A DNA stretch of 64,000 bases from Escherichia coli. GTDB lineage: Bacteria; Pseudomonadota; Gammaproteobacteria; Enterobacterales; Enterobacteriaceae. Made by a program: the position numbers and the translations under genes. Position 1 is the first letter of the stretch; each line of letters opens with the position of its first letter. The stretch lies in assembly GCF_003018115.1 (NCBI RefSeq), contig NZ_CP027457.1, one strand, 5' to 3'. Under the pieces are notes generated by a model. It searched no databases. It was not told the DNA's origin and saw only the letters and a program-made list of their open reading frames with translations. This document shows, one piece after another, positions 1-14,404 of the stretch.

Positions 1-1429
1 CATTCATAAAATAGATATCACAGGTTTTATTATCTGTATTGATTATGATTTTTTCGAATGTTTTATAGGCAAGTGTACGACATAGCTCTCGCCCATTTTT
101 ACTGGTTAAGTCAATAGCATGAAAATCACCAAGTGAACTCACCGCTTTACTCTTCAAAGTTTTTAATGATACAGAAGCCCTTCGTAATTCCTTATCTAAT
201 ACTCTGATTTTTTCTGCTATAGCGGTAACTTCAGGCGCAACAGATAATGCAGCAATTAAATTATTAATTTTCATCTGGAGCTCAATAATTTTCAACTCTA
301 AAGTTTCATTAGCATCTTTCTTGTTTTCAACTGGTTGGATTTTACTACAATTAAAAAGCAACTCATTAATGATATTATAATCAACCAAATCTCTCTTTAT
401 TGATGGCCTGTCACATCGATGCAGTCTTCTCATCGGACAAACATAATAGCCATGCAAACTTCCAGATACCGCATGAACAATCATGGTATTACCACAAGCC
501 TCGCACTTCATAACTGTTCGAAGTAGATTTATCAACATAGGATTTTTGCTACTATTGCTAATACCAAAAGGTGCCAACCGAATTTCCTGCACAGCGTAAA
601 ACAAATCATCTGATATGACTCTGGGATAATAGCCAGCGATTTCACTTATTCCTTTACCTCTTGCACGATATGAAGGTACGCATATACCTATCAGAGCTTT
701 ATTCGCTAATAATTTTTCAATTACAGAAGGTCCCCATGCACTTTCTTTTCCTGAGAAATTCTTTACAGCATGATCATTTAAATACTTGGCTATTGCATTC
801 AATGAGCGCCTTTCCATCCTGAGTTTAAAAATTAGCTCAATAGTTTTCACCCTGTCGGGGTCTGGAACAAAAGCCGTTCTTTTGTCATCCAATGAGAGCC
901 ATCTCGGACAAGACGCCGTCATAATCGTGCCTGACTCCAGTGCATCCTGCCGTTTTTTCTTCCATGATAATTTAACCCGACTTGACTTTATCTCGCTTTC
1001 TTCATTTGCCCTTTGTGCTATAAGTATGGCTTTTATTAATGAATATGGCTCATTCAATGAGTCAATATTATAGACTGTATTATCGCAAAGAGTTATAACA
1101 TCAATACCGTGATTCAAAATCAATTTCAGACGCTCAATCGCTTCACCGACTTTTTCTCTTGAAAGTCTGTCCAGACTTTCAACTAACAATGTAGTCCCTG
1201 GCAATATATAACCATGTTCTATAGCATCTAAAAATTCCGAAAAAGCTCCTGATTGTGCATGCTTTCCATTGAATGCGCTTAACCCCAAATCTTCATACGT
1301 TACGGTATCAAGGTAATAATCACTATTTACCTTTAGCCATTCAGTAATAAGCCTTCTCTGGCGGTTTAATGAATCACCAGACATCTGACCTGGTGATGAA
1401 AATCGCATATATGCTATGGCTTTTTTCAT
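1..1429 (-). CDS. ybcK: Large serine recombinase (resolvase-type N-terminus), 5' portion only; gene runs off the window start
   Basis: Reverse-strand translation from ATG near 1429 reads MKKAIAYMRFSSPGQMSGDSLNRQRRLITEW... (resolvase catalytic Ser motif) and stays open to position 1; matches my recollection of DLP12 YbcK. Not in the ORF track because it lacks a stop in the window. Confidence 0.8.
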   Translation of the reverse strand, partial: MKKAIAYMRFSSPGQMSGDSLNRQRRLITEWLKVNSDYYLDTVTYEDLGLSAFNGKHAQSGAFSEFLDAIEHGYILPGTTLLVESLDRLSREKVGEAIERLKLILNHGIDVITLCDNTVYNIDSLNEPYSLIKAILIAQRANEESEIKSSRVKLSWKKKRQDALESGTIMTASCPRWLSLDDKRTAFVPDPDRVKTIELIFKLRMERRSLNAIAKYLNDHAVKNFSGKESAWGPSVIEKLLANKALIGICVPSYRARGKGISEIAGYYPRVISDDLFYAVQEIRLAPFGISNSSKNPMLINLLRTVMKCEACGNTMIVHAVSGSLHGYYVCPMRRLHRCDRPSIKRDLVDYNIINELLFNCSKIQPVENKKDANETLELKIIELQMKINNLIAALSVAPEVTAIAEKIRVLDKELRRASVSLKTLKSKAVSSLGDFHAIDLTSKNGRELCRTLAYKTFEKIIINTDNKTCDIYFMN

Positions 1430-1684
1430 GGTGACACCTGCTAAAGTATGCTTTTATAAACCTTAGTGGTGAGATATTATTTTTGTTTAATTTTTATTTA
1501 AAAAGACAATTAAGGTCACATTATCTTGAATATACAACAATAATCGTATTGCAATTTTCTTACACCATAATCTTGAAAGCACAAAAGAATGAATAAAAAC
1601 TAAAGACATTAACAAAAAGCATAAAACGAGGCCCATATAAATATACGAGCCTCCATATTTTAGTCGTTTAAAAACAAATTATTT

Positions 1685-2017
1685 TTAATGTGGTGTGCTT
1701 CGTGACAATAAATTAATAACCAACACACCGGCACAAATCAACATCATGCCTATAATGGCTGGCAGGTCCAACCGTTGGCCGAAAAATCCCCATGATAGTA
1801 AGCTAATCAGGACAATACCGACTCCTGACCAGATAGCATAAGCAATCCCTGTAGGAATATAAGCCAGCGTCTGAGCTAATAACCAGAATGATGCACAATA
1901 ACAAATAATTGTACCAACAGATGGCCATAACCGTGTAAAACCTTCTGAAAACTTCATTAAGGTTGTACCAATGACCTCTGCAAGTATTGCACCACCAAGA
2001 TAAATATAAGGATTCAT
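1685..2017 (-). CDS. emrE: SMR-family multidrug efflux protein EmrE (110 aa)
   Basis: Translation MNPYIYLGGAILAEVIGTTLMKFSEGFTRLWPSVGTIICYCASFWLLAQTLAYIPTGIAYAIWSGVGIVLISLLSWGFFGQRL... is essentially EmrE as I recall it; start taken at internal Met 19 of the track ORF. Confidence 0.95.
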   Translation of the reverse strand: MNPYIYLGGAILAEVIGTTLMKFSEGFTRLWPSVGTIICYCASFWLLAQTLAYIPTGIAYAIWSGVGIVLISLLSWGFFGQRLDLPAIIGMMLICAGVLVINLLSRSTPH

Positions 2018-2084
2018 AGCATATTCTTTCCTGTTCAAACTGGAGAGAATTGTACTACAGTTTGAACTCAACTCACCTGTTTCA

Positions 2085-2387
2085 TCATTGTGTACCCATT
2101 GATGTTCTTTTATATACCCTCAATACCCGTTTCATCGCGGCACTCTGGCGACACTCCTTAAAAATCAAATTCGTGCTCACCTTTCCTTCCCATTCTTCTC
2201 TGGTAGCGAACCGATAATACACCGTTCGCCAGACCTTACCATCAACGACCAGGATTCCTGCCCGCGCCATTTTAGCCGCAGCCTGATTTATGCTGGTTAC
2301 CGTTGCGCCTGTTACCGCGGCAACGTCCTGCGCACAGAATTTCTTATGAGTCCCCAGGTAATGAATAATTGCCTCTTTGCCCGTCAT
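2085..2387 (-). CDS. ren: Lambda Ren-like protein
   Basis: MTGKEAIIHYLGTH...AAKMARAGILVVDGKVWRTVYYRFATREE... is near-identical to lambda Ren as recalled; its start overlaps the P stop by 4 nt, as in lambda. Confidence 0.85.
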   Translation of the reverse strand: MTGKEAIIHYLGTHKKFCAQDVAAVTGATVTSINQAAAKMARAGILVVDGKVWRTVYYRFATREEWEGKVSTNLIFKECRQSAAMKRVLRVYKRTSMGTQ

Positions 2388-3085
2388 ACCCTTGCTCCTT
2401 TCAGCCCAAACTTAGCTTTGATTTCTGCGATCTTCGCCAGAGCCTGTGCACGATTTAGAGGTCTACCGCCCATGACAGGAAGTTGTTTTACTGGTTCAGG
2501 TATAGCCTCACCACGGTTAATTCGTGCGGTCATACAGGACAGTTCATCGGCAGCCTTGCGCCGTAATTCCGCGTCAGTCAACGCATTAGCCCGCATGTTC
2601 TGATACAGGTTGGTAACCAGCCAGTAGTGCGCGTTTGATTTCCACGGATAAGACTCTGCATCCGGATACAGCCCGCGCTTCCGGCAATACTCGTAAACCA
2701 TATCAACCAGCTCGCTGGCGTTTGGCAGCCCGGCGGTAACGGATGCTTCTTCCCGGCACCAGGCGACAAACTGCCCGGGTGATGGCAGGAATGGTCGATT
2801 CTGCCGACGGGCTACGCGCATTCCAGCGTTAACCTGTTCCATTGTGGTGATCCCGTTTTCCCGAAAAGCCAGCACCCACTGGCGGCGGATTTCGTTCAGT
2901 TCATTCTGGTCACGGTTAGCCAGGCTCGCCGGGAAAGTTGCCAGTAACTGGCTGAACACACCGTTGATGATCTGCGCTACCTGCTGTACCTGTGGCTTTT
3001 CGTCGTACTGTTCCGGCATGTTGTTGGCGATCCGACGCATCTGCTCACGGTCAAAGTTAACCATCTGTGCGGCGATGTTTTTCAT
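2384..3085 (-). CDS. P: Replication protein P (DnaB helicase loader), lambda P-like
   Basis: 233-aa translation MKNIAAQMVNFDREQMRRIANNMPEQYDEKPQVQQVAQIINGVF... matches lambda P over its full length as recalled. Confidence 0.9.
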   Translation of the reverse strand: MKNIAAQMVNFDREQMRRIANNMPEQYDEKPQVQQVAQIINGVFSQLLATFPASLANRDQNELNEIRRQWVLAFRENGITTMEQVNAGMRVARRQNRPFLPSPGQFVAWCREEASVTAGLPNASELVDMVYEYCRKRGLYPDAESYPWKSNAHYWLVTNLYQNMRANALTDAELRRKAADELSCMTARINRGEAIPEPVKQLPVMGGRPLNRAQALAKIAEIKAKFGLKGARV

Positions 3086-4101
3086 AGATCCACCCCGTAA
3101 ATCCAGTCAGTGTTTGTCAGGTCGAGTTTTGGTTTGCCGACTGTCACGCCAGCCTGTTGCTTGTTCCGGTTGATTTCGAGCTGGGTCCACTTGTCGCGGA
3201 GTTTGGCCGGACTCAGCACGTTACCGGACCAGAAGTTGTCCTGGCAGGCCCAGCGGAACAGTACACACATGTCGCGGTGGTTACGTCCATCACGTTCACG
3301 CATCAGACGGATATCGTTAGCCCACCCTGCAAAATTCGGTTTTCTGGCTGATGGCGCGATGGTCTTCACCATGTCAAACATCCACTCTGCGGCGGTCAGG
3401 TCTTCTGCTGTCCCCCACTTGCTGCCGCTCTGAATCGCAGCATCCGCTTTCACCACAGGAAGGTCGTTTTCTGGCAGGTCAGAGGATTCGCCAGAATTCT
3501 CGGACGAATAAGGTTTTATATTGTCTTTTGTTAGTTTGTCTTTTGTGTTTACCTGATTCGGGTAAGTGCCTTTACCTGATTTGGGTAAACTTTTCTTACC
3601 TGATTCAGGTAAATTTACCTCTTTCAGGTAAACTTTATTTTTCTTACCTGATTCGGGTAATTTTGACCATTCCCTGACCACATTATTAATGCCGATATTC
3701 CGCCCGCTCTGAATAAAAATCCCACGCTTTACCAGAACACTTTTTGCAGCAGAACACTTGTGCGGCAATATCCCGGTCAACTCGGAAAGTTGCTCGTTGC
3801 TCACCCAATCCAGTTTTTTATTAAAGCCATATGTTTTGCGCATGACAGCCAGGAAGACCAGAAGCTGGTGCTGTGTTAATCCGGCCAGCATTACAGCTTC
3901 CAGCAACTCATTTGCAATGCGCGTATAACCATCATCGAGATCTGCCACGCGCGGCTCCTTTTGTGCCGCATCCGGCACTGGAAAATTGAATATCTCAGCA
4001 GTGTTTGCCATAATTCCTCCCGCAATGAGTGTGTTACGATTTGCACCTGAAAGTCGGTTCTGTTGCCGCAGACCGACTTTCGCCATTTTTGAACCTGTCA
4101 T
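3082..4101 (-). CDS. O: Replication initiator O-like protein (lambda O-type N-terminal iteron-binding domain, divergent C-terminus)
   Basis: N-terminal VADLDDGYTRIANELLEAVMLAGLTQHQLLVFLAVMRKTYGFNK resembles lambda O; the gene contains the iteron array; the 4-nt overlap with P is typical. Confidence 0.85.
   Translation of the reverse strand: MTGSKMAKVGLRQQNRLSGANRNTLIAGGIMANTAEIFNFPVPDAAQKEPRVADLDDGYTRIANELLEAVMLAGLTQHQLLVFLAVMRKTYGFNKKLDWVSNEQLSELTGILPHKCSAAKSVLVKRGIFIQSGRNIGINNVVREWSKLPESGKKNKVYLKEVNLPESGKKSLPKSGKGTYPNQVNTKDKLTKDNIKPYSSENSGESSDLPENDLPVVKADAAIQSGSKWGTAEDLTAAEWMFDMVKTIAPSARKPNFAGWANDIRLMRERDGRNHRDMCVLFRWACQDNFWSGNVLSPAKLRDKWTQLEINRNKQQAGVTVGKPKLDLTNTDWIYGVDL
3550..3660. repeat. 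Replication origin iterons: five copies of about 16 bp TACCTGATTCGGGTAA (each TACC-N8-GGTA dyad) inside the O gene, next to an AT-rich stretch (about 3490-3545)
   Basis: Directly visible copies starting near 3550, 3573, 3597, 3616 and 3645; the same arrangement as ori-lambda inside O. Confidence 0.65.
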
Positions 4102-4643
4102 ATTGCCCCCAGCATGGTGGTGACCATCGCCATCAATGGACCAGCCAGATCTGGGTCCACTCGAAACATCGACACAATGCCTTCACTCATCTCCTTCAGT
4201 TTCTGGTGGCGTGGTGCGTTGAGAATGACCGCCTGCTTTGCCTCACTGAGTTCCTTTTCCATTTCAGCCAGCCGAGCCATGAAGCTATCCTGCTCAACCA
4301 GGTGGCCGCGATATTCCAGCGGTAGTACCGCCAGAATTGCCGGGGTCAGTTCACGCACGTTATTTCGGTATTTTTCAGAATCGAATTTGTTATCGAGGAA
4401 GCGGAACAGCTTCTGGCGTGCACGACTGACATCATCAGGAAAATCGATGGTGCCGCCGCCCTGTGCTCGATACTCATTCACAATGAGTGCGGCAACTACA
4501 TCCTGATTATCTTCAGCAGACCAGGCGCGGACGGCATCACGAATTTTTTCGTGGCCTGGCACCTGTTTTATTTGAGAACGATTTATCACCGCAGTCGGGC
4601 TAAATCCGCTAGTCTGTTGGTATGTAAGTGGTTGCATAATCAT
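4098..4643 (-). CDS. CII-position regulatory protein, possibly YdaT/CP76-family (181 aa)
   Basis: Occupies the cII position between cro-like and O; motifs EYRAQGGG and LTPAILAVLPLEY recall the YdaT/phage CII (CP76) family. Family assignment is from memory only. Confidence 0.5.
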   Translation of the reverse strand: MIMQPLTYQQTSGFSPTAVINRSQIKQVPGHEKIRDAVRAWSAEDNQDVVAALIVNEYRAQGGGTIDFPDDVSRARQKLFRFLDNKFDSEKYRNNVRELTPAILAVLPLEYRGHLVEQDSFMARLAEMEKELSEAKQAVILNAPRHQKLKEMSEGIVSMFRVDPDLAGPLMAMVTTMLGAI

Positions 4644-4667
4644 CGCCTTATCAGTTAACGCCGCAGA

Positions 4668-4895
4668 TTAGGCGGCAGAATTACTCGCGTTAAACAATGG
4701 TGCGAGGTCGGGACGAATATCTGCTGGCTTAATCTTTCCACCAGTGGCTGAGACAATTTTCATTACATAGCGGGCATCAATTCCGCCACCGTGTAGCCAA
4801 CGCCAAACAGTGGGCTGGGCTACACCGCATAGATCTGCCAGTCGTTTTTGACTACCTGTAATACTGATTGCGAGTTGAATGGTTTGATTTGTCAT
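4668..4895 (-). CDS. Cro-like HTH regulator (YdaS-like), 75 aa from the ATG
   Basis: Helix-turn-helix motif QKRLADLCGVAQPTVWRWL; divergent from the cI-like gene; AGGA 8 nt upstream of the ATG at 4895 (track ORF starts at a TTG at 4901). Confidence 0.6.
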   Translation of the reverse strand: MTNQTIQLAISITGSQKRLADLCGVAQPTVWRWLHGGGIDARYVMKIVSATGGKIKPADIRPDLAPLFNASNSAA

Positions 4896-5005
4896 TATCA
4901 ATTCCTATTGGTATTACAATGAATGGATAATAGCAATGCGTATTAACCATGGCAATAGCAAAACGTGTTTTGACCATCAATACGCAAGCGTATAAATTAA
5001 AACTT
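4896..5005. promoter_or_regulatory. Immunity-region divergent promoter/operator region (OR-like), with dyad sites ATAATAGCAATGCGTATTAA (about 4927-4946) and GCAATAGCAAAACGTGTTTTG (about 4952-4972)
   Basis: Intergenic between divergent cro-like and cI-like genes; dyad-symmetric repeats sharing AATAGCAA with the OL-like region at 7530-7577. Confidence 0.45.
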
Positions 5006-5698
5006 ATGAAAAAAGAAACTCTTGCTGATCGCTTAAACCTAGCGATGGAACAATCTGGGATGTCTCAAGGCGCTCTTGCAAAGGCGTCTGGCGTAGCTCA
5101 ACCCACAATCTGGAGACTGACAAGCGGCAACGCGCGCGGCTCAACAAAAATTGTTGAAATAGCGAATGCATTGGGTGTTCGAACAGAGTGGCTCTCATCA
5201 GGCATAGGCCCGATGAGAAATGACGGTCAACAATCAGGGAAGCCTACTGTCAACCATTCCAAATACTTCAAGATTGACGTTCTTGATATAGAAGTGAGTG
5301 CCGGGCCGGGAGTCATCAACCGTGAGTTTGTAGAAGTCCTACGCTCGGTTGAGTACTCGTTTGACGATGCTCGTCACATGTTCGATGGCAGGAAGGCGGA
5401 AAATATCCGCATCATTAACGTACGTGGTGACAGCATGTCAGGAACAATCGAACCAGGTGATCTGCTGTTCGTTGATATCACGGTTAAATCTTTCGACGGT
5501 GATGGCATCTATGCGTTTCTGTACGACGACACAGCCCATGTAAAGCGCCTGCAAATGATGAAGGATAAGCTGTTGGTTATCTCTGATAACAAGAGCTACT
5601 CACCGTGGGACCCGATCGAGAAAGACGAGATGAACCGGGTGTTCATTTTTGGGAAAGTCATCGGGAGCATGCCGCAGACCTACAGGAAGCATGGGTAG
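5006..5698 (+). CDS. cI: cI-like prophage repressor (N-terminal XRE-type HTH plus C-terminal S24/LexA-like autoprotease domain)
   Basis: HTH motif GMSQGALAKASGVAQPTIWRL; C-terminal region with GDSM Ser motif (RGDSMSGTIEPGDLLFVD) and downstream Lys (HVKRLQ). Start could also be the upstream ATG at 4949 (track); 5006 leaves room for operators. Confidence 0.8.
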   Translation: MKKETLADRLNLAMEQSGMSQGALAKASGVAQPTIWRLTSGNARGSTKIVEIANALGVRTEWLSSGIGPMRNDGQQSGKPTVNHSKYFKIDVLDIEVSAGPGVINREFVEVLRSVEYSFDDARHMFDGRKAENIRIINVRGDSMSGTIEPGDLLFVDITVKSFDGDGIYAFLYDDTAHVKRLQMMKDKLLVISDNKSYSPWDPIEKDEMNRVFIFGKVIGSMPQTYRKHG

Positions 5699-5733
5699 GT
5701 AGTATGTAAAGAATTACCTTTGGTTGATTTGTA

Positions 5734-5763
5734 ATAGCTACCGATTACGTTATCGGTAGCTAT
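5734..5763 (+). terminator. Perfect hairpin (12-bp arms ATAGCTACCGAT / ATCGGTAGCTAT, 6-nt loop) followed by an A/T-rich tract; possible terminator or attenuator after cI
   Basis: Inverted repeat read directly from sequence; followed by aagaaattttt. Confidence 0.35.
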
Positions 5764-5821
5764 AAGAAATTTTTATGTCTTTAACTGTGTTTATTTATTC
5801 AATACTAGTTGGACTATAGCA

Positions 5822-6844
5822 ATGAAAGATAACAGACAAAAAGTCGTTCATTATAAAAAAGCAGTAATCCCACACAGCAAATCATCATTACAAAACATAC
5901 TACTTAGTATTATAGGTGAGGGCGGCGTTGCAGAAAAAGTACTTAGTAGACAAGAAAAAATAACACCTTCAGATGAAAATTCGGGGTATCGTTTCTTAAA
6001 TAAAAGCGACACATACAAAACTATACTTTTTGGGCAACTGGTTTTATTTGAAAAAGACAAAAGCCAGTCTCTATTAGAGCTTAGTGATAATGTTAAATTT
6101 TATGACATTAACTCCATCACGTCTAATGATATAATTATTGATGGAGATAAACGTAGTGACAAAAAAAGAGAGTTTGTAGATTCAATTTTATATTTTGGTG
6201 TACTAAACAACCATGTCATGATCGTTCAATCCACATCGCTTCGAGCAAGGGAGCTTGAGGCGCATTTGAATTGGCTAATTAATACATTCACAGATGAAAA
6301 AGAATCTGTGTTAATGCTTCAAGATAAGCCATCCGAAGAAACGATGAAAAAAATGGAGAAAGCACCAGCCAAGAGCATAAAAATTGGTGGATTACCCATT
6401 ACTTCAGAAGTTAAAAATTCAGAGAACCAAACACCCTCCTTTTCAAATGGTTCGGTGAAGACAATAAAATACCGCCCAATAGGGAAAGGAGGTGCGCTAC
6501 TAAAAGCATTTTTTGGCGATAACTGGGCAAATGATATAAACATTAAAGATTCATTAGATGAGGCCAATTTACAAGTAAGCCTCGAGATTACATACTTCAG
6601 AAAAACAAATGATAGCGGTCAAGCTGTTATAGACAGTATTGCTACCTCACTACGACATCTAGATGAGGATGATATTAGCATCAAACTTCAAGGCGGTGGG
6701 GAAATAACGGGAAAAGAGATAAAATTATCCGGAAAAATTAGCGTTGAACATAACAATGGCATTATTGATGAAAATGATTTATTCTTAAAAATGCATAAGT
6801 GGCTGTTCTCAAAACTTGATGCCGGAGAATTGGTTGCAAAATAA
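5822..6844 (+). CDS. Hypothetical 340-aa soluble protein, first gene of a rexA-position two-gene module (candidate phage-exclusion component)
   Basis: Long ORF in a markedly AT-rich segment immediately downstream of cI on the same strand; no family recognised by eye; no predicted TM segment. Confidence 0.6.
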   Translation: MKDNRQKVVHYKKAVIPHSKSSLQNILLSIIGEGGVAEKVLSRQEKITPSDENSGYRFLNKSDTYKTILFGQLVLFEKDKSQSLLELSDNVKFYDINSITSNDIIIDGDKRSDKKREFVDSILYFGVLNNHVMIVQSTSLRARELEAHLNWLINTFTDEKESVLMLQDKPSEETMKKMEKAPAKSIKIGGLPITSEVKNSENQTPSFSNGSVKTIKYRPIGKGGALLKAFFGDNWANDINIKDSLDEANLQVSLEITYFRKTNDSGQAVIDSIATSLRHLDEDDISIKLQGGGEITGKEIKLSGKISVEHNNGIIDENDLFLKMHKWLFSKLDAGELVAK

Positions 6845-6865
6845 CCTACCAAAAGGAGGGCGATA

Positions 6866-7372
6866 ATGAAATCGAACATCATCCACCTTATTGGTATGTT
6901 GGTCTTCTATTTTGCTGGTTACTTTTTGTTCAAGTTAGCATTGGGCTATATTACACCGGGTGTTGTCCTAACAGCTCCGTGGGCTGTGGTTGGACTCATG
7001 CAATTGCCATTATCATATTGTATACAAGCCATTTTTAAGGCAAATGAGGCCAATGACCACTCGTCTTTAACCCCTAGTGAGGTTAGGCGATTAGTGCCAA
7101 TAGTCAAATCCAAGAGACTGAAATTGGTTTTATTATTAGCTTTCTATGTATTTTCAACTTTGTTTGTAATCTTGGGGTTAATAGCAAGCACAAATGATCA
7201 AGCCCTACTCTTCAGGGTCTTAAAAATTTCAGGTGGATTACTCTTTATTTCTCTCTATACCAGTGTATTCGTTCATAAAATAATGGTTGAGCTTCAAGAG
7301 TTTAAAGCGTTATTAAACCGAAGAGAATCAGAGAAGAAGGAAAGAGAGTCACTCCTTGATAGATTAAAATGA
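6866..7372 (+). CDS. Hypothetical 168-aa membrane protein with four predicted TM helices and a charged C-terminal tail, second gene of the rexB-position module
   Basis: Hydrophobic stretches IIHLIGMLVFYFAGYFLFKLALGYI, VVLTAPWAVVGLMQLPLSYCIQAIF, LKLVLLLAFYVFSTLFVILGLIAS and GGLLFISLYTSVFVHKIMV; RBS AAGGAGG upstream; 21-nt gap from the upstream gene. Confidence 0.6.
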   Translation: MKSNIIHLIGMLVFYFAGYFLFKLALGYITPGVVLTAPWAVVGLMQLPLSYCIQAIFKANEANDHSSLTPSEVRRLVPIVKSKRLKLVLLLAFYVFSTLFVILGLIASTNDQALLFRVLKISGGLLFISLYTSVFVHKIMVELQEFKALLNRRESEKKERESLLDRLK

Positions 7373-7381
7373 CCCCCCCTC

Positions 7382-7408
7382 CCCGGCCGTCGTGCCGGGT
7401 TTTCTTTT
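7382..7408 (+). terminator. Rho-independent terminator (stem CCCGGC/GCCGGG, loop CGTCGT, then TTTTCTTTT)
   Basis: Read directly from sequence, 10 nt after the stop of the membrane-protein gene. Confidence 0.65.
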
Positions 7409-7529
7409 GCCTCCCCTCATCACACACCGTTCAAAAAACCACCATAACCCCCGCTTCAGTTATCGCTATGCGATGCAAGTCACAAAATTAATTCCTTTTG
7501 CTATCAAACAGTTAATATCAAAATACATC

Positions 7530-7577
7530 AATCAATAGCAATAAGTATTGATATCACCAATAGCAATAGCTATTATT
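7530..7577. promoter_or_regulatory. Candidate OL-like operators / pL region: TCAATAGCAATAAGTATTGA and CCAATAGCAATAGCTATTATT
   Basis: Dyad-symmetric sites sharing the AATAGCAAT core with the OR-like region; located upstream of the N-position ORF, as OL/pL are in lambda. Confidence 0.35.
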
Positions 7578-7649
7578 ACCATGTCGCAACAACACAACGA
7601 TACGGCAACCACCTGATTCGCCGTTGCGATGACCGCTTAGATCCGCAGC

Positions 7650-8060
7650 TTGAATTTCAGCAGGCTCCGGGGAGTGCGAGGGGTGAAGCGGACGCGTGAA
7701 CGTCGGTGTGACCAGCTGAAATCAACTCAACACTTCATACCTCAGTCGCTTCAACGAGGCGGCTTAGTTATGACAACCGGCGGCCATCCACCGCCTGAAT
7801 ACGCGCAGAAGTCTCTATATGTTCAGCAGCCCAGCTTACGGGCAGGAGTTTTTATGGTTCATCAACATTACGGAACTCAGACCGTTAATCGCGGTGCCGT
7901 CCGGCCAGGTATGCTGGTTAAACACAAAGATGGTACCTGGACGGCATCAGCTAATTTGCGCGGTCGGCTTTACTTGCATCGCGGCATCGAACGAACGTAC
8001 ACAAAAGATTTGCTCGTGGAGGTTTACCTGAATGGTACTGGCGGTGGTCTGAGCCACTAA
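7650..8060 (+). CDS. Putative N-like antitermination protein (arginine-rich motif near N-terminus); start codon uncertain
   Basis: Track ORF begins at a TTG; translation contains RGVKRTRERR, resembling the lambda N arginine-rich motif (TRRRERR). Alternative starts: GTG near 7683, ATG at 7770, ATG at 7854 (the last with AGGAG 5 nt upstream). Confidence 0.35.
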   Translation: MNFSRLRGVRGVKRTRERRCDQLKSTQHFIPQSLQRGGLVMTTGGHPPPEYAQKSLYVQQPSLRAGVFMVHQHYGTQTVNRGAVRPGMLVKHKDGTWTASANLRGRLYLHRGIERTYTKDLLVEVYLNGTGGGLSH

Positions 8061-8064
8061 CTAC

Positions 8065-8370
8065 TCACTTGTTTGGGCCGTGTGGAGCCAAAGCAAATTC
8101 AAGGTTGTAGATACTCCCATCAGGGGCTTTGAAATCAACCTCAAACCGAGATGGCGGATTGAATGGATCGAGTACATTTTCTGCTACGCATGTAGATCTC
8201 CAATTGATATGGCCTTTGCCAAGCGAGCGAGATTCCCACCAAGCTCTCCAGGTCTGGTCTTGCGGTTGATCACTCCCCTTTTCCCTTACATACCAATGAT
8301 TCTTTTTCGACTGCTTACCCATTTCTGCGGTTGGGTACATCGGAGAAGACTTTAACTTATCAATCAGCAT
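8065..8370 (-). CDS. Hypothetical 101-aa protein encoded antisense to the early-left operon
   Basis: ORF on the opposite strand with AAGGTG 6 nt upstream of the ATG at 8370 (track extends to an upstream GTG at 8379); no recognisable family; no TM segment. Confidence 0.4.
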   Translation of the reverse strand: MLIDKLKSSPMYPTAEMGKQSKKNHWYVREKGSDQPQDQTWRAWWESRSLGKGHINWRSTCVAENVLDPFNPPSRFEVDFKAPDGSIYNLEFALAPHGPNK

Positions 8371-8508
8371 TCTAGACACCTTATTTATCAGATTTTGAGC
8401 AAGACATAGTGTGATCCAACATTTTGATTAATCAAGCGAGTTCATTCAAACAACTATGCAGTTAACGCACTGTCTGGATCCGCACATCAAAATTTCAGGA
8501 GTTTATCC

Positions 8509-8805
8509 ATGAACGCTTATTACATTCAGGATCGTCTTGAGGCTCAGAGCTGGGCGCGTCACTACCAGCAGATCGCCCGTGAAGAGAAAGAGGCAGAACT
8601 GGCAGACGACATGGAAAAAGGCCTGCCCCAGCACCTGTTTGAATCACTCTGCATCGATCATTTGCAACGCCACGGGGCCAGCAAAAAAGCCATTACCCGT
8701 GCGTTTGATGACGATGTTGAGTTTCAGGAGCGCATGGCAGAACACATCCGGTACATGGTTGAAACCATTGCTCACCACCAGGTTGATATTGATTCAGAGG
8801 TATAA
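8509..8805 (+). CDS. gam: Gam (RecBCD inhibitor), 98-aa form
   Basis: [60 protein letters not shown]... matches lambda Gam as recalled; AGGAG RBS. Confidence 0.95.
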
Positions 8806-8810
8806 AACGG

Positions 8811-9596
8811 ATGAGTACAGCACTCGCAACGCTGGCTGGGAAGCTGGCTGAACGTGTCGGCATGGATTCTGTCGACCCACAGGAACTGATCACCACTCTT
8901 CGCCAGACAGCATTTAAAGGCGATGCCAGCGATGCGCAGTTCATCGCATTGCTGATCGTCGCCAACCAATACGGCCTTAATCCGTGGACGAAAGAAATTT
9001 ACGCCTTCCCCGATAAGCAGAACGGCATCGTTCCGGTGGTGGGCGTTGATGGCTGGTCCCGCATCATCAACGAAAACCAGCAGTTTGACGGCATGGACTT
9101 TGAACAGGACAACGAATCCTGCACATGCCGGATTTACCGCAAAGACCGCAATCATCCGATCTGCGTTACCGAGTGGATGGATGAATGCCGCCGCGAACCA
9201 TTCAAAACCCGCGAAGGCAGAGAAATCACGGGGCCGTGGCAGTCGCATCCCAAACGGATGTTACGGCATAAAGCCATGATTCAGTGTGCCCGTCTCGCCT
9301 TCGGATTTGCTGGTATCTATGACAAGGATGAAGCCGAGCGCATTGTCGAAAATACCGCATACACTGCAGAACGTCAGCCGGAACGCGACATCACTCCGGT
9401 TAACGATGAAACCATGCAGGAGATTAACACTCTGCTGATTGCCCTGGATAAAACATGGGATGACGACTTATTGCCGCTCTGTTCCCAGATATTTCGCCGC
9501 GACATTCGCGCATCGTCAGAACTGACACAGGCCGAAGCAGTGAAAGCTCTTGGATTCCTGAAACAGAAAGCCACTGAGCAGAAGGTGGCAGCATGA
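8811..9596 (+). CDS. bet: Bet (Red-beta single-strand annealing protein), 261 aa
   Basis: Full-length match to lambda Bet as recalled ([66 protein letters not shown]...). Confidence 0.95.
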
Positions 9597-10273
9597 CACC
9601 GTACATTATCCTGCAGCGTACCGGGATCGACGTGAGAGCTGTCGAACAGGGGGATGATGCATGGCACAAATTACGGCTCGGCGTCATCACCGCTTCAGAA
9701 GTTCACAACGTGATAGCAAAGCCCCGATCAGGAAAGAAGTGGCCTGACATGAAAATGTCCTACTTCCACACCCTGCTGGCTGAGGTTTGCACCGGTGTGG
9801 CTCCGGAAGTTAATGCTAAGGCGCTGGCCTGGGGAAAACAGTACGAGAACGACGCCAGAACCCTGTTTGAATTCACTTCCGGCGTGAATATTACTGAATC
9901 CCCGATCATCTATCGCGACGAAAGTATGCGCACCGCCTGCTCTCCCGATGGTTTATGCAGTGACGGCAACGGCCTTGAACTGAAATGCCCGTTTACCTCC
10001 CGGGATTTCATGAAATTCCGGCTCGGTGGTTTCGAGGCAATAAAATCGGCTTACATGGCCCAGGTGCAGTACAGCATGTGGGTGACGCGAAAAGATGCCT
10101 GGTACTTTGCCAACTATGACCCGCGCATGAAGCGTGAAGGCCTGCATTATGTCGTGATTGAGCGGAATGAAAAGTACATGGCGAGTTTTGACGAGATGGT
10201 GCCGGAGTTCATCGAAAAAATGGACGAGGCACTGGCTGAAATTGGTTTTGTATTTGGGGAGCAATGGCGATGA
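9593..10273 (+). CDS. exo: Lambda exonuclease (Red-alpha), 226 aa
   Basis: [54 protein letters not shown]... matches lambda Exo as recalled; ATGA overlap with the bet stop. Confidence 0.95.
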
Positions 10274-10452
10274 CGCATCCTCACGATAATATCCGGGTAG
10301 GCGCGATCACTTTCGTCTACTCCGTTACAAAGCGAGGCTGGGTATTTCCCGGCCTTTCTGTTATCAGAAATCCACTGAAAGCACAGCGGCTGGCTGAGAA
10401 GATAAATAATAAACGGGAGGCGGTATGCACAAAGCATCTCCTGTTGAGTTAA
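10264..10452 (+). CDS. Small hypothetical phage protein (62 aa), lambda orf60a/orf61/orf63-position
   Basis: ORF overlapping the exo stop; position corresponds to the small orfs between exo and xis in lambda. Confidence 0.45.
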
Positions 10453-10622
10453 GAACGAGTATTGAGATGGCACATAGCCTTGCTCAAATTGGAGTCAGGT
10501 TTGTGCCAATACCAGTAGAAACAGACGAAGAATTTCATACGTTAGCCACATCCCTTTCACAAAAGCTGGAAATGATGGTGGCGAAAGCAGAAGCAGAAGC
10601 AGATGAGAGAGACCAGGTATGA
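10425..10622 (+). CDS. Small hypothetical phage protein (65 aa)
   Basis: ORF with GGGAGG-type RBS; acidic C-terminus; translationally coupled to the next ORF through an ATGA overlap. Confidence 0.5.
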   Translation: MHKASPVELRTSIEMAHSLAQIGVRFVPIPVETDEEFHTLATSLSQKLEMMVAKAEAEADERDQV

Positions 10623-10702
10623 CAACCACTGAATGCATTTTTCTGGCAGCGGGCTTCATATTCTGTGTGCTTATGCTTGCCGACATGGGGCTTGTTCAAT
10701 GA
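10619..10702 (+). CDS. Candidate 27-aa single-TM peptide (MTTTECIFLAAGFIFCVLMLADMGLVQ), below the ORF-track size cutoff
   Basis: ATG overlaps the upstream stop (ATGA) and its own stop overlaps the downstream ATG (ATGA); hydrophobic core consistent with one membrane helix. Confidence 0.35.
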   Translation: MTTTECIFLAAGFIFCVLMLADMGLVQ

Positions 10703-10914
10703 CACCTCAGCAAGAAAACGCCCTTCGCAGCATTGCCCGTCAGGCTAATTCTGAAATCAAAAAAGCCAGACAGCATTTTCCGGATAAAAACGTCGATGAC
10801 ATTTGCCGTAGCGTACTAAAGAAGCACCGCGAAACGGTAACGCTGATGGGATTCACACCGACTCATTTAAGCCTGGCGATCGGCATGTTGAACGGCGTCT
10901 TTAAGGAACGGTGA
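10699..10914 (+). CDS. Small hypothetical phage protein (71 aa from MTPQQ...)
   Basis: Internal ATG of track ORF 10633-10914, chosen because it is translationally coupled to the upstream small ORF. Confidence 0.5.
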   Translation: MTPQQENALRSIARQANSEIKKARQHFPDKNVDDICRSVLKKHRETVTLMGFTPTHLSLAIGMLNGVFKER

Positions 10915-11012
10915 ACATGAAAAGCAAAATCATCAGGGAGCTACAGGCTCCTTTTTTATTATTCGCATTTACCCTCAAGCGTATTAACCAACAATTCAGG
11001 GATTAATGAAAG

Positions 11013-11231
11013 ATGGCAGACATCATTGATTCAGCATCAGAAATCGAAGAATTACAGCGCAATACAGCAATAAAAATGCGTCGTCTGAACTACCAGACTG
11101 TATCCGCAACTCATTGTTGTGAGTGTGGCGATCCGATAGATGAGCGAAGACGCCTGGCTGTTCAGGGTTGTCGGACTTGTGCAAGTTGCCAGGAGGAGAT
11201 CGAACTTAAGAACAAACAATGGGGACTGTGA
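11013..11231 (+). CDS. TraR/DksA-family C4 zinc-finger protein (72 aa)
   Basis: CxxC...17...CxxC motif (CCECGDPIDERRRLAVQGCRTCASC) typical of TraR/DksA C4 zinc fingers; common in lambdoid early-left regions. Confidence 0.7.
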   Translation: MADIIDSASEIEELQRNTAIKMRRLNYQTVSATHCCECGDPIDERRRLAVQGCRTCASCQEEIELKNKQWGL

Positions 11232-11278
11232 TGGCCTCAAAGCAGCAAATTTCAACATCATCCAACTGAGGTGTAAAA

Positions 11279-11557
11279 ATGTTCAGAATCATTTTTCCTA
11301 ACACCTGGTACGTCGACCACCACGGCACTCCCTGCAAAATCCTGCGTTCTACCCACAACAAAGTTCACTACATCCGAAAAGGCAGAACATGTATCGCCAG
11401 CATGTTCCGCTTTAATCATGACTTTGAACCTGTGAATAAAGCTGATGCAGATCGGATAGCAGAAGAGATCGAAACGGCAGAACACATTAAGAAGTTACGT
11501 GACATGCGTTCAAAAAGCAGAGGTAACCATGGAATCATACAGCCTCACACTCGATGA
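11279..11557 (+). CDS. Hypothetical phage protein (92 aa), upstream of xis
   Basis: ORF with AGGTG-type RBS in the position occupied by ea-type accessory genes in lambda; no family recognised. Confidence 0.45.
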   Translation: MFRIIFPNTWYVDHHGTPCKILRSTHNKVHYIRKGRTCIASMFRFNHDFEPVNKADADRIAEEIETAEHIKKLRDMRSKSRGNHGIIQPHTR

Positions 11558-11900
11558 GGCCTGTCAGTTTCTTAAGATATCCAGACCAACCGCCACCAAC
11601 TGGATACGAACAGGCCGCCTACAGGCAACACGTAAAGATCCAACCAAGCCAAAATCTCCTTACCTCACAACACGGCAAGCCTGCATTGCGGCGCTTCAGT
11701 CTCCGCTGCATACTGTCCAGGTGAGCGCGGGTGATGGCATAACAGAGGAAAGAAAATGTCACTCTTCCGCAGAAATGAAATATGGTATGCCTCGTATTCG
11801 CTCCCGGGCGGGAAACGAATTAAGGAATCTCTTGGCACAAAGGACAAGCGGCAAGCTCAGGAGTTGCACGACAAGCGAAAAGCAGAACTCTGGCGAGTAG
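11529..11900 (+). CDS. xis: Excisionase-like (AlpA/Xis-type HTH) ORF; reading frame runs about 145 nt into int, so the true 3' end is uncertain
   Basis: [36 protein letters not shown] is an AlpA-like HTH; immediately upstream of the integrase. Confidence 0.45.
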
Positions 11901-12919
11901 AAAAGCTAGGGGATTTACCTGATGTCACTTTTGAAGAGGCCTGCCTAAGATGGCTTGAGGAAAAAGCTGATAAAAAATCTCTCGATTCAGATAAAAGCCG
12001 GATTGAGTTCTGGCTTGAACATTTTGAGGGTATAAGGCTTAAAGATATCTCGGAGGCAAAGATTTACTCTGCTGTAAGCAGAATGCATAACAGAAAGACG
12101 AAAGAAATATGGAAACAGAAAGTTCAGGCCGCCATCAGGAAAGGTAAAGAACCGCCTGTTTATGAACCAAAGCCAGTATCAACTCAGACAAAGGCAAAGC
12201 ATCTTGCCATGATAAAGGCCATTCTCCGTGCTGCAGAACGCGACTGGAAGTGGCTGGAAAAAGCGCCTGTCATCAAGATACCAGCGGTCAGAAACAAGCG
12301 AGTCAGATGGCTGGAAAAGGAGGAAGCAAAACGCCTTATTGATGAGTGCCCCGAACCACTGAAATCTGTCGTCAAGTTTGCGCTGGCAACTGGTCTGAGA
12401 AAGTCGAACATCATAAATCTGGAATGGCAACAAATCGACATGCAGCGACGAGTTGCCTGGGTGAATCCAGAAGAGAGCAAATCAAACCGCGCCATTGGCG
12501 TGGCGCTGAACGATACCGCCTGTAAAGTGTTGCGTGATCAAATAGGCAAGCATCACAAATGGGTGTTTGTACATACCAAGGCGGCTAAGCGAGCAGATGG
12601 AACATCAACGCCTGCGGTCAGGAAGATGCGCATCGACAGCAAGACATCATGGCTATCAGCTTGTCGTCGTGCAGGAATTGAAGATTTCCGTTTCCATGAC
12701 CTCAGACACACCTGGGCAAGCTGGCTGATTCAGTCAGGCGTCCCATTATCAGTGCTTCAGGAAATGGGCGGATGGGAGTCCATAGAAATGGTTCGTAGGT
12801 ATGCTCACCTTGCGCCTAATCATTTGACAGAGCATGCGAGGAAAATAGACGACATTTTTGGTGATAATGTCCCAAATATGTCCCACTCTGGAATTATGGA
12901 GGATATAAAGAAGGCGTAA
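11756..12919 (+). CDS. intD: Tyrosine integrase, DLP12 IntD-type (387 aa)
   Basis: Full-length match to DLP12 IntD as recalled ([46 protein letters not shown]...; C-terminal [10 protein letters not shown]...RYAHL catalytic region); stop 16 nt from the tRNA 3' end. Confidence 0.95.
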
Positions 12920-12934
12920 CTGATTGAATTGTAA

Positions 12935-13011
12935 TGGCGCGCCCTGCAGGATTCGAACCTGCGGCCCACGACTTAGAAGGTCGTTGCTCTATCCAACTGA
13001 GCTAAGGGCGC
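12935..13011 (-). tRNA. argU: tRNA-Arg (anticodon UCU)
   Basis: Reverse complement reads GCGCCCTTAGCTCAGTTGGATAGAGCAACGACCTTCTAAGTCGTGGGCCGCAGGTTCGAATCCTGCAGGGCGCGCCA; cloverleaf with TCT anticodon and encoded CCA. Confidence 0.95.
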
Positions 13012-13253
13012 GTTGATACCGCAATGCGGTGTAATCGCGTGAATTATACGGTCAACCCTTGCTGAGTCAATGGCTTTTGATCTGGTTGCTGAACAAGTGA
13101 ACGACCGCGTCTGATTTTCTGATTTATTTCGCTATAGCGGCAAACAAACGCACACCGCTGCGCGTCTGAATCAAGAAAACCCGTATTTTCATGTATCAAA
13201 GTACAATTTACCGCCCTAACGGAAAATTGTCCGCTCCTATGAGACTGGTAACT

Positions 13254-13886
13254 ATGAAACCAACGTCGGTGATCATTATGGATACTCATCCTATCATCAG
13301 AATGTCTATTGAAGTTCTGTTGCAAAAAAACAGTGAATTGCAGATTGTCCTGAAAACGGATGATTACCGCATAACCATCGATTATCTCCGAACCCGTCCT
13401 GTTGATTTAATCATTATGGATATAGACTTGCCCGGAACAGACGGTTTTACCTTCCTGAAAAGGATCAAACAAATCCAGAGCACAGTGAAAGTGTTATTTT
13501 TATCATCGAAATCAGAATGCTTTTATGCTGGCAGAGCGATACAAGCTGGTGCTAACGGTTTTGTCAGTAAATGCAATGATCAGAATGATATTTTTCATGC
13601 CGTTCAGATGATCCTCTCCGGATACACGTTTTTTCCCAGCGAAACGCTTAACTATATAAAAAGCAATAAATGTAGTACGAATAGTTCAACGGTCACTGTG
13701 CTATCTAATCGTGAAGTGACCATATTACGTTATCTAGTTAGCGGATTATCTAATAAAGAAATTGCCGATAAGTTATTACTTAGCAATAAAACAGTTAGTG
13801 CGCATAAATCTAATATTTATGGCAAGCTAGGTTTGCATTCAATTGTAGAGCTTATCGACTACGCCAAATTATACGAATTAATATAA
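13254..13886 (+). CDS. fimZ: Fimbrial response regulator FimZ (REC plus LuxR-type HTH)
   Basis: Translation from MKPTSVIIMDTHPIIRMSIEVLLQKN... matches FimZ as recalled; track ORF extends upstream to 13191. Confidence 0.9.
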   Translation: MKPTSVIIMDTHPIIRMSIEVLLQKNSELQIVLKTDDYRITIDYLRTRPVDLIIMDIDLPGTDGFTFLKRIKQIQSTVKVLFLSSKSECFYAGRAIQAGANGFVSKCNDQNDIFHAVQMILSGYTFFPSETLNYIKSNKCSTNSSTVTVLSNREVTILRYLVSGLSNKEIADKLLLSNKTVSAHKSNIYGKLGLHSIVELIDYAKLYELI

Positions 13887-13888
13887 TA

Positions 13889-14404
13889 TTAATTATAATT
13901 GATCATAAATATCGCATCCGCTTTCGCCACACCTGGCCGAACACCGCTGGCTAACGCTCGATAATTGGCAAAAAAGTTTAGTGTGACATTGCCATTTGCA
14001 TCTACTTCCTCAGTCGGGCTCGCCTCCCCCAGTGCGAGCCGGGAGCGATCGCTATTACGTAATTCGATGGCGACGGTTTGTGCCATTGCGGGATCATCCA
14101 GAGCCAGCAGGTTGGCATCAGATGCCGGCGTTCCCGTAAATAAAATCGCAACTGAACCCGGAGGACATCCCTCCAGCCGCAGGCTAAAAGGGACGAGTGC
14201 CGTGGTATCGCCAGCGTTCAGTAATTGTGTCGTAGGCCATCTGCCTAAATCTACCGTCTTATCAATATCCGCTGTGTTTACGGTACAGGAGAAATCAACA
14301 ACGTTACCGTGCAAATTGATATTAATCGTTCCTAAAGGGTCAGCTGCCCATCCACTGGAACTCCACAGTAACCCGCAGAAACAGCTAAAGAATACTCTTC
14401 TCAT
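13889..14404 (-). CDS. sfmF: Type 1-like fimbrial minor subunit SfmF
   Basis: Signal peptide MRRVFFSCFCGLLWSSSGWA followed by fimbrial subunit domain; gene order matches the sfm operon. Confidence 0.85.
   Translation of the reverse strand: MRRVFFSCFCGLLWSSSGWAADPLGTININLHGNVVDFSCTVNTADIDKTVDLGRWPTTQLLNAGDTTALVPFSLRLEGCPPGSVAILFTGTPASDANLLALDDPAMAQTVAIELRNSDRSRLALGEASPTEEVDANGNVTLNFFANYRALASGVRPGVAKADAIFMINYN

Follow-up and report, generated by a model that had tools for sequence, protein, structure and literature searches.

A probable attL junction of a DLP12-family prophage at the tRNA gene argU of Escherichia coli is delimited by a 47-bp identity block reaching the anticodon loop

Introduction

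Integration of a DLP12-type element at the arginine tRNA gene argU of Escherichia coli has been known since 1989 and is curated in the K-12 genome. The intD-argU junction of DLP12 was reportedly described in that year by Lindsey, Mullin and Walker, who are also said to have claimed that int and argU overlap. In K-12 the element is a cryptic remnant of 21.3 kb, in which xis and exo have become pseudogenes and which has received IS3 and IS5 insertions. The attR of DLP12 has been reported as 47 bp of argU (PMC6379469).

Comparable arrangements have been described in other phages. In the Salmonella phage epsilon34, a 43-bp argU attP lies just after an IntD-like int gene and has a core identical to part of the Salmonella argU; an N-terminal arm-binding domain was given to this integrase by analogy with lambda Int (PMC2629481). 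Integrases of the P22/SfI/SfV type belong to the same Int family, and their attP regions follow the same order: the int stop, a short spacer, the 3' part of the tRNA as far as the anticodon loop, and a conserved far arm with GTCCCA motifs. Their core, however, matches thrW and not argU, and they therefore use a different chromosomal site. For tyrosine integrases, sublocation in the anticodon loop has been described as a class (PMC4383910, Islander, with an anticodon-centred attP; PMC1635311).

Here we describe a junction of this kind in a 64-kb stretch of E. coli DNA, referred to as the window, whose positions are used throughout unless another record is named. A sequence-only reading had placed a prophage-chromosome junction at the 3' end of argU, and its claims are taken up below where the results bear on them.

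Results

An IntD-type integrase gene ends beside an intact argU

ARAGORN found a single tRNA gene across the 64-kb window, on the minus strand at 12935-13011, which it typed as tRNA-Arg (anticodon tct), and the Rfam tRNA model matched at 12938-13011 with 72.1 bits. By both programs this gene, argU (tRNA-Arg(UCU)), is intact. Its anticodon loop (CTTCTAA, tRNA nt 33-39) occupies 12973-12979 on the minus strand, with the anticodon TCT at 12977-12975. On the chromosomal side, a consensus scan picked out a sigma-70-like promoter upstream of argU at 13043-13070 on the minus strand (TTGACT-16-TATAAT, 11/12, a pattern match only). This promoter-like sequence is unchanged in the alignment with an empty-site genome, and fimZ lies beyond it as the right-hand neighbour of argU. 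A terminator scan returned none downstream of argU within the int region.

Convergent with argU is int (11756-12919, plus strand, with its TAA stop at 12917-12919), which encodes a tyrosine integrase of 387 aa of the IntD/DLP12 type and which, because the two genes converge, ends beside the 3' (CCA) end of the tRNA. The product is identical to K-12 IntD (b0537) at 385 of 387 residues (99.5%), carries a full-length Pfam Phage_integrase domain at residues 184-355 (E=5.5e-47) and matches PHROG integrase families. The N-terminus gave no match to the Pfam Arm-DNA-bind family and only a sub-threshold one to DUF6538 (E=0.0046, 17 bits against a cut-off of 27). Between the int stop and the argU 3' end there is a spacer of 15 nt (12920-12934), so that the int coding sequence and the mature tRNA do not overlap here. 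The sequence-only reading had put this distance at 16 nt; the adjacency of the two genes holds, while the count is off by one at most. The argU target, the integrase and the spacer from int stop to tRNA are all shared with DLP12 of K-12.

Overlapping the start of int is a candidate xis of 123 aa (11529-11900, plus strand), which matches the excisionase family phrog_2907 over profile positions 1-116 of 117 (E=5.9e-46) and Pfam HTH_17 (E=1.2e-8). Its equivalents in relatives are called by PGAP as a short, incomplete HTH pseudogene (locus L001, 45712-45777; locus L010, 2231-2293), and xisD is listed as a pseudogene in K-12. The 123-aa ORF of the window is nonetheless covered by the PHROG excisionase match along its whole length, and the pseudogene calls in the full-length relatives may be annotation artefacts.

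A 47-bp identity block is shared by attB, attP and both prophage ends

The int stop is followed by a phage-specific spacer (12920-12932), which forms the end of the int-side attP arm, and then by a 47-bp identity block, AATGGCGCGCCCTGCAGGATTCGAACCTGCGGCCCACGACTTAGAAG (12933-12979), consisting of 2 nt past the tRNA 3' end and tRNA nt 33-77. In alignments, the spacer is the same in the attP of the free phages 2G7b and Turner and in the int-side junctions of K-12 and of the prophage of strain VG35A2, and it is unlike the envY side of the empty site. Four-way and seven-way alignments gave sharp breakpoints at 12932/12933 and at 12979/12980, with phage-specific sequence up to 12932 and chromosome-specific sequence from 12980. 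On the side of the tRNA 5' part, the block starts with tRNA nt 33, at which the anticodon loop begins.

All combinations of flanks around the block were present in the alignments (P-47-B', B-47-P', B-47-B' and P-47-P'). Exact copies of the 47-mer were found in the attB of the empty site, in the attP of 2G7b and Turner, and at both prophage ends in K-12, VG35A2 and OkiPb01681. In the empty attB the 47-mer stands between envY and the 5' part of argU, which is followed by fimZ, and an unoccupied envY-argU-fimZ site is carried by the closest chromosomal relative of the window, NZ_LR882990.1 (99.5% identity). VG35A2 has its far junction between envY and ompT, where 12933-12979 recurs as a 47-bp copy without a mismatch (BLAST E=5.8e-22).

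A virtual attP was built from the int side of the window, the 47-mer and the far-side sequence of VG35A2, and the free phages 2G7b, ev243, Turner and Kati (4 phages, 6 records) proved to contain it without interruption at 98.3-99.7% identity. Their genomes measure 45.6-48.2 kb. Thus, in each of these phages the int side of the window is joined through one 47-mer to the far-side sequence. 2G7b is classified in the genus Nesevirus. The GenBank record of Turner (PP925837.1) lists a 'tRNA-Pro' at its attP (6391-6474; locus L006, 3303-3386), which coincides with the argU 3' fragment. ARAGORN gave no tRNA there or at any far junction, and we therefore rejected it as a real tRNA; it is probably a mis-annotated argU fragment.

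We hold with high confidence that 12920-13011 is the int-proximal junction (attL in lambda terms) of a DLP12-family lambdoid prophage that has integrated site-specifically into argU. The junction proposed by the sequence-only reading is thus borne out by all att forms in relatives and free phages, as is its view that the att core overlaps the 3' part of the tRNA gene, which the block does over tRNA nt 33-77 plus 2 nt. The core had been expected to be the terminal 15-25 nt of argU, and this has to give way to the identity block of 47 bp. The far copy had been called attL; in lambda usage that name belongs to the int-proximal junction, and the far copy would be attR, a matter of naming only.

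Strand exchange probably occurs in the anticodon loop

The free phage carries, 13 nt past the int stop, a 47-bp copy of argU sequence that starts at the anticodon loop and includes 2 nt beyond CCA. In the mechanism that we propose, IntD recombines this attP with attB, the matching 47 bp of the chromosomal argU. As the phage comes with a tRNA 3' part of its own, argU is regenerated intact next to int, where the chromosomal promoter would drive it, and a 3' fragment, on this reading the original chromosomal one, is displaced to the far end of the prophage, beside envY. Alignment with attB and attP assigns the 5' 32 nt of argU (12980-13011, minus strand) to the chromosome; the 3' 45 nt, which form part of the identity block, are probably phage-donated.

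Strand exchange probably takes place in the 7-nt anticodon loop, at about 12973-12979, on the chromosomal edge of the block. It is placed there because a phage has no need of tRNA sequence other than that lying 3' of the exchange point, and an exchange in this loop would make the 3' 45 nt of the tRNA phage-supplied. The locus shares several features with the anticodon-loop class (Williams 2002; Islander class A): the identity block begins at the anticodon loop and takes in the tRNA 3' end, the tRNA is intact, and both an empty attB and a free attP exist.

The attP regions of four phages were compared, two with an argU core (2G7b and epsilon34) and two with a thrW-type core (ENT47670 and SfI). 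The cores differ, yet all of them end at the equivalent position, and they are flanked by conserved arms that include a noncoding far arm of about 125 bp. The int-side arm falls within the int coding sequence. In the window, tandem GTCCCA motifs, ATGTCCCAAATATGTCCCAC, occupy 12868-12889 on the plus strand in the 3' end of int, and they are putative arm-type sites for Int binding in the int-side arm. The motif, which was picked after the data were seen and lies partly in coding sequence, occurs four times in all, with two copies at the int 3' end and two in the far arm; ACGACATTTT, likewise chosen after the data were seen, occurs twice, one copy on each side of the core. The GTCCCA motifs are conserved in the attP of 2G7b, epsilon34, ENT47670 and SfI despite their differing cores, and we infer that these repeats, like ACGACATTTT, are candidate arm-type Int sites. 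Epsilon34 shares with the window an IntD-like integrase, an attP just downstream of int that matches the argU 3' part, and the conserved arms. It differs in having three core substitutions relative to the E. coli 47-mer in the alignment, about 79% DNA identity, a podovirus (P22-like) background and gtr cargo beside attP.

A 387-aa integrase was also seen in another E. coli assembly (locus L022, 17236-18399), beside Aldedh and AA_kinase/PUA genes that are proA/proB-like. We take these surroundings to be the thrW neighbourhood, and the L022 integrase would be consistent with the sister thrW-targeting integrases of the attP alignment.

The position of the crossover within the 47-bp block is not readable from the sequence, as both copies are identical, and this leaves room for an exchange elsewhere in the block, for instance in the T-loop, with the identity up to the anticodon loop merely historical. 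We consider this unlikely. The edge of the block falls exactly on the base at which the anticodon loop begins, and the thrW-targeting SfI and ENT47670, with a wholly different core, end at the equivalent position beside the same conserved arm. The data moreover fit the described anticodon-centred class (PMC4383910).

The visible prophage is collinear with full-length relatives

The lambdoid prophage occupies 1-12932, as judged from its ORFs and from collinear relatives, and this visible part is its early half. The gene order is ybcK (cut by the window end), ylcJ, emrE, ren, P, O, ydaT/ydaS-like genes, a cI-like S24 repressor gene, two ORFs of unknown function, kil, gam, bet, exo, xis and int. 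The lambdoid order beside int (xis, exo-bet-gam, repressor, O/P, ren, emrE, ybcK) is thereby confirmed. DLP12 of K-12 has the same neighbours, with fimZ on one side and xis, exo and then emrE and ybcK on the other. In contrast to K-12, however, the early region of the window is undisrupted (gam-bet-exo, the cI-like repressor, O/P) and has an intact xis candidate, as in the 48-50 kb relatives. emrE (1685-2071) is also located inside the prophage.

Over its whole length the visible prophage is 98.6% identical to the prophage of VG35A2, and over most of its length it is 99.5-99.7% identical to that of OkiPb01681. The temperate phages Perceval and PhiR68_2 are 97% identical to it over 83-85%. The free phages (2G7b, ev243, Turner, Kati, Perceval and PhiR68_2, with genomes of 45.6-50.1 kb) differ from the window in their immunity and replication modules, which are mosaic. 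Two draft assemblies, GCA_028528485.2 and GCA_019342445.2, are at least 99.95% identical to window 1-14107 apart from one 6-nt indel. The matching draft contigs (GCA_028528485.2 and others), found through the exact O-like replication protein, reach only 6.9 kb past the left end of the window.

The two ORFs directly downstream of the cI-like repressor gene, at 5822-6844 (plus strand, 340 aa) and 6866-7372 (plus strand, 168 aa), are placed as rexA and rexB are in lambda. By eye, the translation of the 168-aa ORF has a hydrophobic N-terminal stretch that is apparently membrane-spanning. Neither ORF had a Pfam or PADLOC match, and both are kept in VG35A2, OkiPb01681 and the draft assemblies. Together they may form an uncharacterised exclusion or defence cassette.

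The far copy lies outside the window

Neither a 30-mer (3 mismatches allowed) nor a 15-mer (2 mismatches allowed) from the tRNA 3' part had a second match in the 64-kb window, argU itself being the only one. With the far-end duplication seen in related genomes, this agrees with the earlier placement of the far att copy outside the window. In the relatives the far 47-mer is flanked by ompT and envY and stands 21.3 to 50.4 kb from its partner; the spacing is 21,302 bp for K-12, 48,038 bp for OkiPb01681 and 50,368 bp for VG35A2. The K-12 copies, at 564755-564801 and 586057-586103, are both identical to window 12933-12979. In the source genome, the far copy would be expected some 45-50 kb beyond the left end of the window, with envY on its outside and TTCCTAGAACGAC...ompT on its inside.

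The sites were counted in 5,426 complete E. coli genomes, a match being one that covered at least 80% of a 647-bp probe. The int-argU-fimZ junction was present in 1,754 of these genomes, the far junction in 1,591 and the empty site in 2,532, and the 47-mer was found at 7,137 places in 5,424 genomes. If the two sets are nested, about 91% of the genomes with the int junction also have the standard far junction, and about 9% may lack it. On these population counts, the far copy is very probably present in the source genome. Two contigs from Logan, whose identity to the window is 99.4% and 99.9%, each end exactly 30 nt into the block, at 12962, which suggests a k=31 graph (k being assumed) that breaks at a repeat starting at 12933.

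About 1,040 genomes had a junction-probe identity in the 90-95% band. The sole example of this band that was examined, H74 (NZ_CP023826.1, 586208-586677), has a diverged integrase beside argU (91.5% DNA identity) with different flanks, and other elements may thus also use this tRNA gene.

The junction could be real and the prophage nevertheless 'grounded' here, its far att copy having been deleted or rearranged so that there is no duplicated core and no excision. The far end does lie beyond the window, the same element has decayed to 21 kb in K-12, and the far junction is found in fewer genomes than the int junction (1,591 versus 1,754). However, int and xis are intact, and the 12.9 kb of prophage in the window match, in collinear order and at 97-99.7% identity, full-length prophages with both copies retained as well as active phages. 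Both 47-mers have been retained even in the decayed DLP12 of K-12, and the contig breaks of near-identical assemblies within the block suggest a repeat. We therefore regard a grounded prophage as very unlikely, and a far copy in its usual place, beside envY, remains our preferred reading.

Discussion

The comparison of attB, attP and both junctions bears directly on where the element ends. A short core of 15-25 nt at the extreme 3' end of argU, with strand exchange at the tRNA 3' end or at the acceptor/T-stem junction and an element boundary at about 12934, could appeal to the int stop lying only 15 nt from the tRNA 3' end and to the 3'-end and T-loop sublocations that exist for other integrase families (PMC1635311; PMC4383910), but it is highly improbable, since the identity between attP, attB and both junctions goes 45 nt into the tRNA and stops right where the anticodon loop starts, an exchange near the 3' end would leave the phage without a reason for carrying tRNA nt 33-60, and the curated boundary in K-12 is argU nt 33. 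As the 47-bp block extends to the anticodon loop, it does not fix the right boundary of the element at about 12934, where the sequence-only reading had drawn it. The boundary is better set at 12979, as in the K-12 annotation, where the RefSeq feature 'cryptic prophage DLP12' (564755..586056) begins at argU nt 33, equivalent to window 12979, and ends just before the second 47-mer.

For annotation, the prophage should thus be delimited at 12979 (argU nt 33), with a 47-bp att block, and not at the tRNA 3' end. The 47-mer is also the right tool for deleting, curing or measuring this prophage, the far end of which is to be sought between ompT and envY. The useful results of this work are the base-accurate boundaries, the attP in sequenced free phages and the occupancy figures for the site. 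Beyond correct annotation the junction matters little, and its practical value is the precise boundary.

In free phages, ompT and an alpha/beta hydrolase gene directly adjoin attP (2G7b, locus L005, 4770-7394; compare locus L002, 9217-11841). Given this position beside attP in free phage genomes, the 'host' protease OmpT travels as cargo within the att-bounded element.

A wider reading, to which we give an even chance, is that the window holds an intact, still mobile DLP12. Such an element would be an inducible phage of about 48 kb like 2G7b, carrying 'host'-gene cargo (ompT, with emrE further in) and a swappable integration cassette, made up of conserved arms and a replaceable tRNA core, whose target would have switched between thrW and argU inside a single integrase family.

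Finally, argU is the tRNA gene for the rare AGA and AGG codons, and the probable phage origin of its 3' two-thirds is relevant for that reason. The 3' two-thirds of the expressed argU is probably phage-supplied DNA.
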